The notes under the pieces were generated by a model. It was not told the DNA's origin. It did not search any database and saw only the letters and a program-made list of their open reading frames with translations. From IMG/VR virus record IMGVR_UViG_2778261249_000009, positions 1 to 5,194 of that record: a stretch of 5,194 bases of DNA, one strand, 5' to 3'. Position 1 is the first letter of the stretch. Each line of letters opens with the position of its first letter. A program made the translations under genes and the position numbers. This document shows, piece after piece, positions 207 through 5,194 of the stretch. Source of the stretch: a virus (taxonomy: Duplodnaviria > Heunggongvirae > Uroviricota > Caudoviricetes).

Positions 207-233
207 CAAAAAGAAACCGCCATCAGGCGGCTT
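207..233 (-). terminator. Rho-independent terminator (minus strand)
   Basis: Minus strand reads AAG-CCGCC-TGAT-GGCGG-TTT followed by CTTTTTG: GC-rich 5 bp core stem (217-221 / 226-230), extendable to 8 bp, 4-nt loop, then U-tract 207-216. Sits between the small ORF stop and the xis RBS. Confidence 0.5.
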
Positions 234-390
234 GGTGTTCTTTCAGTTCTTCAATTCGAATATTGGTTACGTCTGCATGTGCTATCTGCGCCCACAGCAT
301 CCAGTGGTCATAGCAGTCGCTGATGTTCTCGGCTTCGATAACTCTGTTGAATGGTTCTCCATTCCATTCACCTGTGACTCGGAAGTGCAT
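223..390 (-). CDS. Hypothetical small protein, 55 aa (MHFRVTGEWNGEPFNRVIEAENISDCYDHWMLWAQIAHADVTNIRIEELKEHQAA); below the ORF-track length cutoff
   Basis: Hand-translated: ATG at 390-388 with GGAG 7 nt upstream; TGA stop at 225-223 falls in the loop of the downstream terminator hairpin. Protein-like composition (3 Trp, 4 His). No family recognised. Confidence 0.3.
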   Translation of the reverse strand: MHFRVTGEWNGEPFNRVIEAENISDCYDHWMLWAQIAHADVTNIRIEELKEHQAA

Positions 391-490: not shown

Positions 491-1696
491 TTAGCCACGG
501 TTAACCTCCTGCGGCGGTTCTGGTAGTGGCATCCAGTGGGTTACACCGCCAATTGGTTCATCGTCGTCGTACTCCAATGCGGCTATATAGAACCCGTCAC
601 GACGAGAATAAGAAATCCCGGACATTACAATGCCATCCGAAACAACAATAATGTCACCCGTTTCTTCCGGCATTCGCTCACTACAGCTTATCCAACCATC
701 CGGAGTTACCGGAGTTGGTCCATCGAATTCGGGCATGTCAGGACCTTTTCTGATAGCTTTAGCCAGCTCCAGCGGGTCATCGTAAAGCCAGTCGCCAGTT
801 TGTGGGTGATTTGCTTCTGCAAGCTGCGCAGCCCATTCAAGACCATCTTTTTGACCTTGGAGATAATCAAGCGGCAACTCTTCATGATTACTTACAGGTT
901 GGCTACCCTGAAGCATGGCAGCGTGGCAGGCATACTCAACACCCTTAACTGCATCTGCGCAGTAGTTATAGCGATTGCATTCCACTAATTTCCGTTTGAG
1001 TTTTTCAATTGCCTGCGCGACATCAGCCTGTATTACAGGAACTGGCGGAACGGCTGTTTGCTCTCGAACGTCATTAGTCGCTATCGGTTCTGCTGCCAAC
1101 TGACTGGCATATTTGTTAATGGTAACGATAAGCTCTTGCTCAGCCTCATCCAGACAATCACCGATACCTCGCCTGTCACCGTCAAAATCATCGAAATCGG
1201 CACGAATCTTGGCAACCTTCAGGATTGCGGACAACACCTCACTAGGAATTACCGGATAGTTGGTTGACGTTTCCGCGATTTCCCGAAAATTATTGGTTGA
1301 CGAATTCTTATTTTCCCGAAAGTTTCCGGACTGAAGCATGGCGGCGCGGCAGGCGTTCCAGCCTCTTACCTCTGCAATAGCGGCAACCGCATCAACCGCG
1401 TACATGCTAAGAGGATTAGGAATTGGTTTTTCTTCCGGTACTACTGGCGCTGGAGGGGCGGCGTAAATGCCCTCTATCACTAAATGTTTGCGCTCAAAAT
1501 CATCTGGCTCTCGATGATATACGTAACTCCAGTCACCAAGGTTATCATTGCGCCTGCAACGGAAACCTATCGGCTCTGCTTCCAGCGATGCCAGCGCAAT
1601 TTCATAAGCCCGGCGTTCAATATTGTCTCGAACGTCCAGGCTGCTGATACGCTCTTTGATTTCTTTAATCAGTTCTTTGTCGGTGAAAGTGGTCAT
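491..1696 (-). CDS. DUF551 domain-containing phage protein (401 aa)
   Basis: Track ORF 491..1777 begins at a TTG. The preferred start is ATG 1696-1694 with AAGGAG 7 nt upstream, 1 nt after the upstream gene stop (TGATATG). C-terminus ...DGWISCSERMPEETGDIIVVSDG...GFYIAALEYDDDEPIGGVTHWMPLPEPP matches the DUF551 signature (THWMPLP) seen at C-termini of enterobacterial prophage proteins. Internal repeats noted separately. Confidence 0.75.
   Translation of the reverse strand: MTTFTDKELIKEIKERISSLDVRDNIERRAYEIALASLEAEPIGFRCRRNDNLGDWSYVYHREPDDFERKHLVIEGIYAAPPAPVVPEEKPIPNPLSMYAVDAVAAIAEVRGWNACRAAMLQSGNFRENKNSSTNNFREIAETSTNYPVIPSEVLSAILKVAKIRADFDDFDGDRRGIGDCLDEAEQELIVTINKYASQLAAEPIATNDVREQTAVPPVPVIQADVAQAIEKLKRKLVECNRYNYCADAVKGVEYACHAAMLQGSQPVSNHEELPLDYLQGQKDGLEWAAQLAEANHPQTGDWLYDDPLELAKAIRKGPDMPEFDGPTPVTPDGWISCSERMPEETGDIIVVSDGIVMSGISYSRRDGFYIAALEYDDDEPIGGVTHWMPLPEPPQEVNRG
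1260..1325. repeat. Tandem imperfect 33-bp direct repeat (2 units, about 25/33 identical) inside the DUF551 CDS
   Basis: Units 1260-1292 and 1293-1325 both begin TTGGTTGACG and contain TTTCCCGAAA; they encode NFRENKNSSTN / NFREIAETSTN on the minus strand. Confidence 0.6.
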
Positions 1697-1697
1697 A

Positions 1698-2309
1698 TCA
1701 CTCTCCTTTAATGCGAATGCCAGCGGCGCGTGGCACATTAACTTCCACGATGCGCACAGTTGGTTTGTACATCTCAATCGCTGTCAGCCAGTCAGCTCCT
1801 GTCATGCGCTTTTCCGCATCGCCATTAGTCCACTGAACCGGTACACCAATAGCCTTCATAGCGATTTCTATTTCCCCGGCAATGGCGCTTTTTCCGCAAC
1901 CAGTAAAACCAGATACAACGACCAGAACTTCACCTTTGGCTGGTTTTATTTCCCGCGCTTCCAGTTCAGCAATGCGCTTACTCCCATCCCAGATAACGCC
2001 CTCGTAATACTCACGCTGCTCGTTGAGTTTTGATTTTGCCAACTCCAGTTGTTTTGTTAGTTCCGCAATACGGCAAACATCGTTGATACGCGTTTCCTCT
2101 AATGCGTTGATCTCATCCAGTAGTGCCAGCACGGTTTCTGGTCCGGCCAGAAATTTGAAGGCGTTGAGGGCATCAATATCAACACCGCTATCTTTAAGTT
2201 CCTGTTCGCTTATCAGATCATCATCAACTGGCAACATTAACAGGCGTTCCATTGCCGGAATTGCACGCTCTGCCGCCTCACGCAGTGCCTGGTAATTAAT
2301 TTCGCTCAC
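1698..2309 (-). CDS. Ead/Ea22-like coiled-coil prophage protein (203 aa with GTG start; possibly shorter)
   Basis: Track ORF 1698..2501 is over-extended through the Lar gene. GTG at 2309-2307 has GGAGG 6 nt upstream and overlaps only the last 14 nt of lar; alternative ATG at 2252. N-terminus SEINYQALREAAERA followed by a heptad-rich coiled-coil segment resembles Ea22-like proteins as I recall them (unverified). The C-terminal segment VVVSGFTGCGKSAIAGEIEIAMKAIGV is unassigned. Confidence 0.55.
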   Translation of the reverse strand: MSEINYQALREAAERAIPAMERLLMLPVDDDLISEQELKDSGVDIDALNAFKFLAGPETVLALLDEINALEETRINDVCRIAELTKQLELAKSKLNEQREYYEGVIWDGSKRIAELEAREIKPAKGEVLVVVSGFTGCGKSAIAGEIEIAMKAIGVPVQWTNGDAEKRMTGADWLTAIEMYKPTVRIVEVNVPRAAGIRIKGE

Positions 2310-2529
2310 TGGTTGCCTCCTTTGCTCGCTGATTCCACTCAGCTCTAACCTCTGAATAAAAAATCGCGCAGTCATTTCCAGGCGCTGCATATTTGCTACC
2401 AGATTGAGCGCGACACGTACCGCATCGAACGAAATAGAATCTACCGCCAGAGCCATATTCAGGGTGATCTGCTTCACTGGCAACGTGCGCTGCGCCGCCA
2501 CAGAATGGACATGGTAGTAGGTTGCTCAT
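2296..2529 (-). CDS. lar: Lar-family restriction alleviation protein (77 aa, CxxC...CxxC zinc ribbon)
   Basis: ATG 2529-2527 with AAAGGAG 8 nt upstream; ATGA overlap with the upstream gene stop (2526-2529). CPFCGG at residues 7-12 and CGTC at 36-39, the Lar/RalR-family signature; stop TAA 2298-2296. Confidence 0.7.
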   Translation of the reverse strand: MSNLLPCPFCGGAAHVASEADHPEYGSGGRFYFVRCGTCRAQSGSKYAAPGNDCAIFYSEVRAEWNQRAKEATSERN

Positions 2530-3026
2530 GACTGCACTCCTTTGCGAAGCTGGGCGGCTAACTCGTCACATATGTGCGTCAAGGAGCAAAGTTTGATTGA
2601 TGGATGTTCGCGCATCATCTCAACCCCCTGCGCCCGCACTTCAGCAAGGAAAGCATCGGTGGCTGGGGTTTTAACACGGATGCTGTCGCGCAAGATGAAA
2701 AATGCATCAAGCATTCCAACCTCCGGCACTTCATCCTGATGCTTCTCATACGCATCAAGAGCCTTCATCATCTCAGGTCCGAACGGTTGAGGGTGTGCTG
2801 TCTTCAGCCCAGCATTCTCCGCTGCCAGCACCGAGCACTTGGCTTCAAGGTTGTCAATCGTTATTCCAGCAGAACGACACTCACGCAACGCCGTTTCCAG
2901 TTTTGATTCAAGCTCACCAAATTTACGCACCAGATATTCAGCGTTTGTTTCGTTAACCTTTAAATCACTTGGGATGCATTTACCTTTCAGAAATCCATCC
3001 ATCTCAATTAGTGTCATTTGTTTCAT
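2526..3026 (-). CDS. Hypothetical coiled-coil protein (166 aa from ATG 3026; 172 aa if GTG 3044 is used)
   Basis: Track ORF 2526..3044 starts at GTG. ATG 3026-3024 forms an ATGA overlap with the stop of the upstream 54-aa ORF, matching the coupling used elsewhere in the operon. N-terminal half is predicted coiled coil ([18 protein letters not shown]...). No family recognised. Confidence 0.55.
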
Positions 3027-3187
3027 TTCTTCCCACTCCGCCACATCGCATTCAGATATTTGTTTTGATTCACTGATGTAAAAGAATTTCTCTTAAGCAA
3101 TTCCTCTCTCGATGGCATTGGCTTTACGCGTTGGCGAATAATCATTTCTGCCGGAAGAATGCCGGGATTGTATGCAAGTCCTCTCAT
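3023..3187 (-). CDS. Hypothetical small protein, 54 aa ([54 protein letters not shown])
   Basis: C-terminal part of track ORF 3023..3340. ATG 3187-3185 with GAGG 8 nt upstream, 10 nt after the stop of the 98-aa gene; its TGA overlaps the next start (ATGA at 3023-3026). Basic, Lys/Arg-rich. Confidence 0.35.
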
Positions 3188-3197
3188 GGTAAATTCC

Positions 3198-3494
3198 TCA
3201 GTCATTACTGATAGCGCCATAGCGTGAGCGGTAATTACGCAGGCGCGGGTCGATATATTCAGGGAAGTGGGTATATGTGGCTTTGCGGAATGGTCGGATT
3301 GATGTCTGGTAAATTCGCTCGCGTTCTTCTTTCTCTGCAAGCCATACGCAGTGGCGAAATTCCTTTTCCTCTTTTGTTTCCTGCGGTAGCGACATTATCC
3401 GGTCGTAGTTTTTCCTGAATTTATCCAGCACCTCCGATACGGAATTGCCGGAACAGCGGCGCGGGTCATCCGCACCATACAGAGGCGCTGGCAT
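3198..3494 (-). CDS. Hypothetical protein, 98 aa
   Basis: ATG 3494-3492, 23 nt after the SSB-like gene stop, with a weak TAAGG upstream; fills the gap in the operon. No family recognised. Confidence 0.5.
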
Positions 3495-3517
3495 AATGGG
3501 AGCCTTATTTTCAATAA

Positions 3518-4105
3518 TCAGAAAGGAGGGTAATCGTTCTGGCTGTAACCATAATCATCTGCATGATTCTGGCTTACGTTTTTAGAGCGATTGTCTTTAT
3601 CTTTGAGGCTGGCAACCATGTTGGCGATAGTTTCTGGTTGCTTGCCTTCCGCCTTTTCTTTAAGGGTTTGACCTGTTTGTGCAATAAACGGGATGCGTAT
3701 TTCCATCTGGTAGCTGTCTGCGCCAGTCTTTTTGTTTGTGGTTAATACTTTCTGGAGCACTAACCCGATTTTCTTTCCATGAAACTCAGGAGCAACAAAT
3801 TTACTGGCGGAAACCATATGTTGCGTTAATTGTCCAATCCCGGCACACCCCATCATGGCGTGAACGACATTTGCGCCAAATTTGTTTTCCGTTCCGTCAT
3901 TTTTCTGAACACAGACGCTAAGATATTGGATTTTACGTCCGTCGTCAGATTCGCCAGAAAACTCAATAAATTTGGCTCCTTTTTCTGATTGCTTTAGTTC
4001 TGCTTCAGTAATGGTAATGATATGAGCACCAGTTTCGTTAATAAAACCACCTTGCCCTGCGGTCAGTGCTGCTTCTTCGTTATAAGTAAAAATCACGTTG
4101 CTCAT
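3518..4105 (-). CDS. Putative phage ssDNA-binding (SSB-like) protein partnered with the Sak4-like ATPase (195 aa)
   Basis: ATG 4105-4103 in ATGA overlap with the Sak4-like gene stop; TAAGGA RBS. Acidic C-terminal tail ending ...HADDYGYSQNDYPPF resembles the SSB C-terminal tip (acidic residues + terminal PF). Position immediately downstream of a Sak4-like ATPase matches the known Sak4 + cognate SSB arrangement (e.g. phage HK620). The OB fold is not verifiable by eye. Confidence 0.45.
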   Translation of the reverse strand: MSNVIFTYNEEAALTAGQGGFINETGAHIITITEAELKQSEKGAKFIEFSGESDDGRKIQYLSVCVQKNDGTENKFGANVVHAMMGCAGIGQLTQHMVSASKFVAPEFHGKKIGLVLQKVLTTNKKTGADSYQMEIRIPFIAQTGQTLKEKAEGKQPETIANMVASLKDKDNRSKNVSQNHADDYGYSQNDYPPF

Positions 4106-4782
4106 GCGGCGTTTTCCTTAATTTGATGAACATTATTGATGCCGTAGTAATCACAAACAGTGGCATCGACGAAAGAGAGATCGTTATCAATCTCATTAGA
4201 ATCAAACATTCCCATTGGGGATTTAACAGTGTCTGCACCGTTGTTTTTCGTGGTGAAAAAGAACTGGTCATCGCGGGTAAGGGTGCGAAGAACTATAGTA
4301 AACATGCCTTCGACAGTGATTTTCTCGTCCAGCATTTTGCCGATAGTCTTCATTTTCACACGCCCCATAGGGGTTTCTTCGGTGTGCGCAAGAAAATAGA
4401 CTCTCAGGTCATCAGGTGCATCCTGTGCAGCCTTAATCACCTCCCATGCGTGGCGGCCTATCTCAGTGAATTTATCAAACGATTTTTCTTCTGAGCGGCG
4501 CATAAACTCATTGCTCATCACATACTGGAAGTCATCAACAATAACGATTCTTTTCCCGTATTCGTGAGCACGCTTAATTACGGCAACTATTACGTCCCAT
4601 TTGTCAGTGGTAACTACGGTTCCTTTTTTTGCTCTGGCATCCCATGCCAGCCAGTCTTTTGATTTAAATGGAAGCGGCTTGCCTATTGGTTTTATAAGTA
4701 TTGCTTCCTCTGGATTGATATTTCTCATGCTGGTTGATTTTCCGGTGCCAGATTCACCGAGTATTAATGTCGCAGTTCCCAT
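4102..4782 (-). CDS. Sak4-like RecA-fold P-loop ATPase (AAA_24-type, putative single-strand annealing protein), 226 aa
   Basis: ATG 4782-4780 with GAGG 6 nt upstream. Walker A GESGTGKST at residues 9-17 and Walker B-like IVIVDD near residue 80; size and N-terminal P-loop placement fit short phage Sak4/AAA_24 proteins. Confidence 0.7.
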   Translation of the reverse strand: MGTATLILGESGTGKSTSMRNINPEEAILIKPIGKPLPFKSKDWLAWDARAKKGTVVTTDKWDVIVAVIKRAHEYGKRIVIVDDFQYVMSNEFMRRSEEKSFDKFTEIGRHAWEVIKAAQDAPDDLRVYFLAHTEETPMGRVKMKTIGKMLDEKITVEGMFTIVLRTLTRDDQFFFTTKNNGADTVKSPMGMFDSNEIDNDLSFVDATVCDYYGINNVHQIKENAA

Positions 4783-4790
4783 AATTTGCC

Positions 4791-4979
4791 TCAGAATGGT
4801 AATTCGGATGGGGAGGAAAGAAACTCACGCTCATTCATGCGCTCTCTTTGTGCCTGCCATAAGCAAAGTTGTTTCTTTGATTTATCTCCCGCTTTACGCC
4901 AGTAACGAGCCTCAGCAATGTGATATTCTCTTTTTAATCGACTTAACTCTGGAGTTTTCGCCAGTTCTACCGGAATCAT
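4791..4979 (-). CDS. Hypothetical small protein, 62 aa (start at second Met of the track ORF)
   Basis: Track ORF 4791..4991. GGAGG lies 5 nt upstream of ATG 4979-4977 and overlaps the first ATG (4991), so the second ATG is the better start; it also forms an ATGA overlap with the upstream ORF stop (4976-4979). Confidence 0.5.
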   Translation of the reverse strand: MIPVELAKTPELSRLKREYHIAEARYWRKAGDKSKKQLCLWQAQRERMNEREFLSSPSELPF

Positions 4980-5194
4980 TTTGACCTCCATTTTCTGTAG
5001 GCTTCTACGGCCTCACGAAACATCTTTTCATCGCCAATAAAAGTGGCGATAGTGAATTTAGTCTGAATAGCCATAAGTGTTTTATCCATTTTTTGGAACT
5101 CCTGGCTGATTAAGTACGTCGATAAGGCGTTTCCATCCGTCACGTAATTTACGGGTGATTCGTTCAAGTAAAGATTCGGAAGGGCAGCCAGCAA
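4976..5194 (-). CDS. Hypothetical protein, 5'-truncated at the window edge (or a 37-aa protein if it starts at ATG 5089)
   Basis: Frame is open from the window end (track M is a TTG at 5194-5192) to TGA 4978-4976. Internal ATG 5089-5087 has AGGAG 9 nt upstream, so an independent 37-aa product is possible. Confidence 0.4.
   Translation of the reverse strand: MLAALPNLYLNESPVNYVTDGNALSTYLISQEFQKMDKTLMAIQTKFTIATFIGDEKMFREAVEAYRKWRSK

Follow-up and report, generated by a model that had tools for sequence, protein, structure and literature searches.

The closest described system is the recombination module of phage HK620, whose Sak4 annealase and single-strand binding partner (SSB_HK620) have been studied both biochemically and genetically (Hutinet et al., 2018; PMC5928155). 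HK620 Sak4 binds ssDNA only in the presence of ATP, and it does not bind dsDNA. SSB_HK620 has the apparent size of a tetramer in gel filtration; it shifts ssDNA in gels, with an affinity about 4-fold below that of E. coli SSB. It blocks RecA-mediated annealing and strongly stimulates annealing by Sak4, the latter only with ATP and only with the SSB tail; Sak4 itself binds SSB-coated ssDNA only if that tail is present. Sak4 neither carries out strand exchange nor affects RecA. In oligonucleotide recombineering, sak4 alone gives a 15-fold increase in a recA mutS strain. The four-gene HK620 module reaches about 210-fold, and sak4 with ssb fully restores that level; neither ssb alone nor sak4 with abc2 stimulates recombineering, and hkaM is dispensable in the published assay. 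Removing the last six SSB residues, NDYPPF, lowers recombineering 10-fold and abolishes stimulation in vitro. Compared with lambda Red, the in vivo activity of Sak4/SSB is modest at some loci (PMC5928155).

The genomic setting of these proteins is also documented. An ssb-type gene lies immediately beside approximately 80% of sak4 genes (PMC5928155). The Abc2 protein, encoded by another gene of the module, is described as converting or blocking RecBCD functions by binding RecC (PMC5928155, PMC12315714).

A sak4-ssb gene pair nearly identical to that of HK620

The window is the whole stretch of viral DNA that was analyzed, 5,194 nucleotides long. An earlier note, made from the letters alone, had singled out two adjacent ORFs of 226 and 195 amino acids on its minus strand and had read them as a Sak4-like ATPase with Walker A and B motifs and an SSB-like partner. 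Both ORFs are found at exactly the coordinates given there, and the 226-aa protein carries the two motifs, GESGTGKST and the Walker B-like IVIVDD. The features of the pair are as follows.

4102..4782, minus strand: sak4 (hkaL homologue), 226-aa ORF, identified by phrog_2872, AAA_24 and its identity with HkaL
4732..4758, minus strand: Walker A motif (P-loop) GESGTGKST, residues 9-17 of Sak4, read from the sequence
4531..4548, minus strand: Walker B motif IVIVDD, residues 79-84 of Sak4, read from the sequence
4102..4105, minus strand: ATGA overlap of the sak4 stop and the ssb start, from the sequence and the ORF coordinates
3518..4105, minus strand: ssb (hkaK homologue), 195-aa ORF, identified by phrog_743 and its identity with HkaK
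3683..4030, minus strand: predicted OB-fold core of the SSB, residues 26-141, arranged b1-b2-b3-helix-hairpin-b4-b5
3521..3538, minus strand: SSB C-terminal tip NDYPPF, residues 190-195, the same as in HK620

The window Sak4 is identical to HK620 HkaL (NP_112045) at 225 of 226 positions, and the window SSB to HkaK (SSB_HK620, NP_112044) at 194 of 195. The two allele differences, D43E in Sak4 and E153V in the SSB, both lie outside the motifs; E153 is the consensus residue of the SSB family. At the DNA level positions 3100-5194 are 98% identical to HK620, and the gene order, kil-hkaM-sak4-ssb-abc2, is alike in the two. Judged by this identity, the window pair is the HK620-type Sak4-SSB module, already characterized in 2018 by biochemistry and genetics, and the properties of the HK620 pair would be expected to transfer to the D43E, E153V allele. 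The recombineering activity that had been predicted for the two genes has likewise been published for the 99.5%-identical HK620 proteins, with the predicted result (PMC5928155). Because the proteins are nearly identical to HkaL and HkaK, the reading of this DNA is correct but ordinary and brings nothing new: the same pair, one residue apart in each protein, already serves in the literature as the model for Sak4-type recombination, and the window adds little to it.

The two genes share bases at their junction, where the sak4 stop codon TGA (4104-4102) overlaps the ssb start codon ATG (4105-4103) to form ATGA. This overlap suggests that sak4 and ssb are translationally coupled. On the plus strand the listed ORFs are all short, at 127 aa or less, and no competing gene is evident.

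The 195-aa protein ends in HADDYGYSQNDYPPF, with three Asp among its last 13 residues and PF at the very end. The earlier description of this tail as acidic with a terminal PF, like an SSB tip, thus holds for the PF, and the acidity is only mild. Toward this end (...DDYGYSQNDYPPF), residues 177-193 have a pLDDT below 50 in the AlphaFold2 model and are disordered.

Sak4 family membership and fold

The 226-aa protein belongs to phrog_2872, "Sak4-like ssDNA annealing protein" (E 3.9e-108 over residues 1-220). Its best Pfam match is AAA_24 (PF13479), with 30.2 bits where the gathering score stands at 27, so that the proposed Sak4/AAA_24 assignment is borne out by both collections. AAA_24 is also matched by 10 of the 11 Sak4 homologues that we aligned, whose genes are 630-741 bases long. 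Three residues, G14, K15 and D83, never vary across these 11 sequences, even at 25% identity. The Walker A and B motifs lie within a short single-domain protein that lacks the N- and C-terminal domains of RecA. Since no ORF of the window matches a Red-beta, RecT or Erf profile in Pfam or PHROGs, the module is non-Red and non-RecET, as had been supposed. None of the four Rec-module proteins has a significant NCBIfam match.

Assignment of Sak4 to the RecA/Rad51 superfamily rests on published work (Lopes, 2010; Hutinet et al., 2018; PMC5928155), and the RecA-core fold is reproduced here only weakly. The single-sequence AlphaFold2 model of Sak4 (pLDDT 44.4) is of too low a quality to be used for comparing folds. 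A PDB search with the single sequence found nothing, and the matches of the 11-sequence profile, among them a designed phosphate-loop protein, FtsY and TnsC, did not go beyond the P-loop. When the 11-sequence alignment is compared with E. coli RecA by hhalign, it aligns to RecA 58-151 with a probability of 36% (E 3.7e-4). The alignment is co-linear from Walker A to Walker B and places the Sak4 Walker B opposite IVVDS of RecA. The control comparison, with adenylate kinase, yields a probability of 4.5% over 20 residues.

One might then ask whether the 226-aa protein could be just a generic NTPase with a P-loop (a helicase loader, for instance, or an ATPase for transport or packaging) that has an OB-fold protein as its neighbor by coincidence. 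RefSeq does call it an "ATP-binding protein", Pfam gives AAA_22 at threshold together with weak ABC_tran and Zot matches, and the PDB profile search stays at the level of the P-loop. However, 225 of its 226 residues are those of a protein with demonstrated ATP-dependent annealing, AAA_24 recurs in 10 of the 11 family members, and the pairing of the two genes is conserved across phyla. Published biochemistry effectively refutes the generic reading, which we regard as extremely improbable. The transporter-ATPase variant was set aside as well, since the ABC_tran match takes in no more than the P-loop (residues 2-24, E 0.022).

A phage-type SSB with a predicted OB fold

The 195-aa partner falls into phrog_743, "single strand DNA binding protein" (E 1.8e-66), the HK620/N4-gp45 type of phage SSB ("SSB-2"), and has 147 homologues with E of 0.001 or less. 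Together with the phrog_2872 match of Sak4 and the 391 phage records that match the DNA, this puts the pair well outside what chance would produce. An AlphaFold2 model built from an alignment of 46 of these homologues reaches a mean pLDDT of 82.1 and a pTM of 0.73; it shows a core (residues 26-141), then two short helices, then the disordered tail. The OB fold on which the earlier note had staked its reading of this protein is therefore predicted to be present. Foldseek places the model closest to PrgE (E 3.2e-5, prob 1.00), followed by Bacillus subtilis SsbA (E 8e-3). Among the predicted viral structures of BFVD, the best matches are DUF669 proteins and annotated SSBs (E 1e-14 to 1e-9), the latter including proteins of Roseobacter phage RD-1410W1-01 and Vibrio phage phi50-12.

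Sequence methods alone see neither the OB fold nor the likeness to PrgE. No Pfam, NCBIfam or PDB sequence match links the protein to the canonical bacterial SSB family. PDB searches returned nothing meaningful, whether started from the single sequence, from a profile of 46 sequences or from one of 8 diverse sequences. The comparison with Pfam SSB models that had been proposed gave no match, and the protein does not belong to the canonical bacterial family. The model instead predicts an OB-fold SSB of a phage-type, non-canonical lineage. Hutinet et al. called SSB_HK620 a distant SSB homologue, yet HHpred did not link it directly to E. coli SSB in their hands (PMC5928155). An OB fold that is nearest to PrgE and not to canonical SSB clarifies the inconsistency between two papers on homology with bacterial SSBs.

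The label DUF669, used by NCBI for many homologues and by Hutinet et al. (2018), disagrees with the current Pfam model. No Pfam family, DUF669 included, matches the window SSB at E of 1 or less, none matches the 7-8 related SSB partner proteins at E of 0.01 or less, and no precomputed Pfam domain appears among the 120 SSB homologues listed.

The N-terminal segment of the SSB, about 25 residues long (around 4031-4105, minus strand), is unusually conserved: among the 46 homologues, 15 of its 25 positions reach 90% conservation or more, and the pattern can still be recognized at 16-43% identity. The monomer model leaves this segment poorly ordered (pLDDT 54-60). [quoted passage not shown] We consider it doubtful, though worth stating, that the HK620-type SSB might work in the manner of PrgE and not of E. 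coli SSB, forming a filament-like array that displays multiple NDYPPF tips. If true, such an array could account for the finding that SSB stimulates Sak4 only when it is concentrated enough to form the higher-order "C2" complex.

Neighboring genes in the early-left operon

The sak4-ssb pair lies between the orphan gene hkaM and abc2 in a lambdoid early-left operon. Other genes of the window, from right to left, are the following.

4976-5089, minus strand: Kil-like start (MDKTLMAIQTKF...) at the right window edge, judged by eye against HK620
4791..4991, minus strand: hkaM homologue, a 62-66-aa orphan heading the Rec module, phrog_1723 (E 2e-33)
3198..3494, minus strand: abc2 (hkaJ homologue), anti-RecBCD or RecBCD-modifying protein, PF11043 Anti-RecBCD_p2 (E 9.4e-62)
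3023-3187, minus strand: probable 54-aa hkaI counterpart just downstream of abc2, judged by eye against HK620
2296-2529, minus strand: Lar-like restriction-alleviation protein, 77 aa, PF14354 (E 1.4e-9), phrog_599
1698-2501, minus strand, probable start near 2306: Ead/Ea22-like protein, PF13935 (E 1.3e-21)
491-1777, minus strand, probable ATG at 1696: large ea-region protein of about 401 aa with a C-terminal DUF551 (E 8.5e-15)
1-192 and 223-390, minus strand: early-left genes for an AlpA/Xis/TorI-like excisionase (phrog_66) and a 55-aa protein (phrog_676)

Abc2 of the window is identical to HK620 HkaJ at 95 of 98 positions, and the window HkaM is 98% identical to that of HK620. A consensus scan found no sigma-70-like promoter in 3000-5194, which fits transcription from an upstream pL promoter. 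Terminator-like matches in the same interval lie mostly on the non-coding strand within ORFs and were disregarded.

Several observations concern HkaM. It ends in PSELPF, and this ending is invariant even in the homologues ES18 gp50 and ST64T Orf-66, which are only about 66% identical; the comparison covers four sequences and leaves out the homologue from Salmonella phage GE_vB_TR, an unverified record with in-frame stops. In both ES18 and ST64T the hkaM-type gene precedes an Erf-type annealase, not a Sak4. PSELPF resembles the SSB C-terminal tips DDDIPF and NDYPPF. It is pure speculation, drawn from this resemblance, that HkaM could mimic an SSB tip and modulate access to SSB-binding pockets. 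The label "recombinase" that PHROGs gives to HkaM was apparently inherited from the older "arf" annotation.

The ea region downstream of the Rec module includes the Lar-like protein, which shows a zinc-ribbon-type CxxC...CxxC pattern. The mechanical start of the Ead/Ea22-like ORF overlaps the Lar gene, so its real start is probably a GTG near 2306. The C-terminal extension of this protein contains a P-loop, GFTGCGKSA, and a weak APS-kinase-like match (E 0.007). The large ea-region protein has composite PHROG matches (phrog_14306, phrog_60 and phrog_5117) and looks like a mosaic fusion of modules. At the equivalent position HK620 has a 177-aa DUF551 protein, much shorter than the approximately 401 aa of the window.

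Distribution and conservation of the pairing

The DNA is matched by 391 phage records, and the module is found in 195 of 5,426 complete E. coli genomes; two of these copies are 100% identical. Dozens of Stx-converting phages carry it too. On E. coli chromosomes RefSeq (PGAP) lists the pair as "ATP-binding protein" plus "hypothetical protein" or DUF669. There is thus an annotation gap in RefSeq for a characterized module, and the correct annotation can be transferred.

These counts bear on whether the module might be an inert remnant in a decaying prophage. In favor of this, all the E. coli copies are chromosomal, and none of the phage records or complete E. coli genomes, taken singly, covers 80% or more of the whole window. 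All four Rec-module ORFs are intact, however, and they share 97-99.6% identity with their counterparts in HK620, a functional phage, which makes decay very unlikely; nor is patchy coverage telling, as mosaicism is normal for lambdoid phages, the ea region included. The region almost certainly represents the central part of an HK620-type Rec module, carried in the early-left operon of a phage or prophage of the lambdoid kind.

The pairing itself extends well beyond lambdoid phages. In 7 of 10 distant phage loci, an SSB-like gene of 200-240 aa that can be aligned with the window SSB directly follows sak4. The Sak4 proteins of the distant loci are 25-56% identical to that of the window, and the hosts are Acinetobacter, Pseudomonas, Aeromonas, Moraxella, Roseburia, Enterobacter and Cellulophaga. 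A D/E-[LIM]-PF tip is found in five of the seven distant partner proteins, two of which have one extra residue after it.

Proposed mechanism and biological role

A working model can be proposed by carrying the HK620 results over to the window proteins. The 195-aa SSB would coat ssDNA, as has been shown for the HK620 protein, one residue different. Once bound to DNA it would expose its NDYPPF tip, through which Sak4 would bind the SSB-coated strand, again as seen with the HK620 proteins. Sak4, an ATPase that in HK620 requires ATP to bind ssDNA, would then anneal complementary strands, and it would do so, like the HK620 protein, with neither strand exchange nor influence on RecA. Abc2 presumably reprograms host RecBCD to supply resected ends or ssDNA substrate in place of a phage exonuclease, while the ATGA junction would couple the translation of sak4 and ssb. 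As a whole, the module would support phage recombination and recombination-dependent replication.

The last point raises the question of emphasis. The pair could serve mainly in phage DNA replication, through the theta-to-sigma switch, fork restart or ssDNA protection, and recombineering would then be a by-product. The gene neighborhoods of distant relatives lend this some weight: the sak4 homologues of phage EcP1 and of crAss-like phages sit amid replication genes. In crAss001 and Dulem virus 41 a helicase lies upstream, in EcP1 and Cellulophaga phi14:2 a primase adjoins the pair, and the EcP1 annotation likens its pair to N4 gp44 and the N4 SSB. Lambdoid Rec modules have moreover been implicated in the switch to rolling-circle replication (PMC12315714), and single-strand annealing proteins (SSAPs) promote concatemer formation, with SSAP escape mutants being less fit (PMC13041830). 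The lambdoid module, however, occupies the red/erf position beside abc2 and not the O/P replication region, and the existing direct assays measure annealing and recombination. We see a mainly replicative role as a real but minority possibility; it complements the explanation as a recombination module and does not exclude it.

Defense systems offer another angle. Phage SSAPs and SSBs had been mentioned beforehand as triggers of retron and abortive-infection defenses, and for the protein classes this is correct: AbiK and AbiA target Sak4-family proteins of lactococcal and staphylococcal phages, which infect Gram-positive hosts (PMC13041830), and, according to the literature, phage SSBs act as activators of Retron-Eco8, Hna and AbpAB. 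Nothing ties the HK620-type pair in E. coli to such systems. It could still be argued that the pair is chiefly a target or trigger of these defenses, or a counter-defense together with Abc2. Pfam and PHROGs detect no defense system within the window, though, and being sensed by one is a liability, not a function, so a chief role of this kind is unlikely. The recombination module remains the preferred reading of the pair.

Comparison with known systems

The module shares its early-left (pL) position and its overall task with lambda Red (Exo/Beta/Gam), Rac RecET and P22 Erf/Abc1/Abc2, and with P22 it also has Abc2 in common. It differs from them in its annealase, which is RecA-like and ATP-dependent, whereas those of Red, RecET and Erf are Rad52-like and ATP-independent. 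The HK620-type module also has no phage exonuclease, and it requires a dedicated SSB for full activity.

The same logic, an annealase acting on SSB-coated ssDNA by way of the SSB tip, is found in E. coli SSB/RecO and in RPA/Rad52; the tip is NDYPPF in the window and DDDIPF in E. coli SSB. Unlike RecO and Rad52, to which it is unrelated, Sak4 is an ATP-dependent RecA-core protein, and it does not load RecA.

PrgE, from the Enterococcus plasmid pCF10 (PDB 8S4S/8S4T; PMC11137577), is the nearest solved structure to the SSB model, and yet the two proteins are only 11-14% identical and no sequence-profile link between them was found. PrgE binds ssDNA and dsDNA equally, as beads on a string held together by its N-terminal tail (PMC11137577). 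SSB_HK620, unlike PrgE, is an apparent tetramer characterized as an ssDNA binder in gel shifts (PMC5928155). The prgE gene belongs to a conjugation operon, unlike that of the window SSB.

The N4 gp44/gp45-type pair of Enterobacter phage EcP1 and the other Sak4/DUF669-type SSB pairs have the same gene order, with sak4 followed by a 200-240-aa SSB-like protein. Compared with the window, identity in the N4-type pairs is 25-30% for Sak4 and 16-17% for the SSB, and these pairs are embedded among replication genes and not in a lambdoid Rec module. The partner proteins of EcP1 and Cellulophaga phi14:2 are without the D-x-PF tip of the window SSB.

The HK620 pair itself is by far the closest. Although the ea-region genes downstream of the module are unlike those of HK620, which is ordinary mosaicism, the ATGA overlap, the Walker A and Walker B motifs, the NDYPPF tip and the flanking hkaM, kil and abc2 genes are the same in both, and the window proteins differ from their HK620 counterparts by one conservative substitution each (D43E and E153V).
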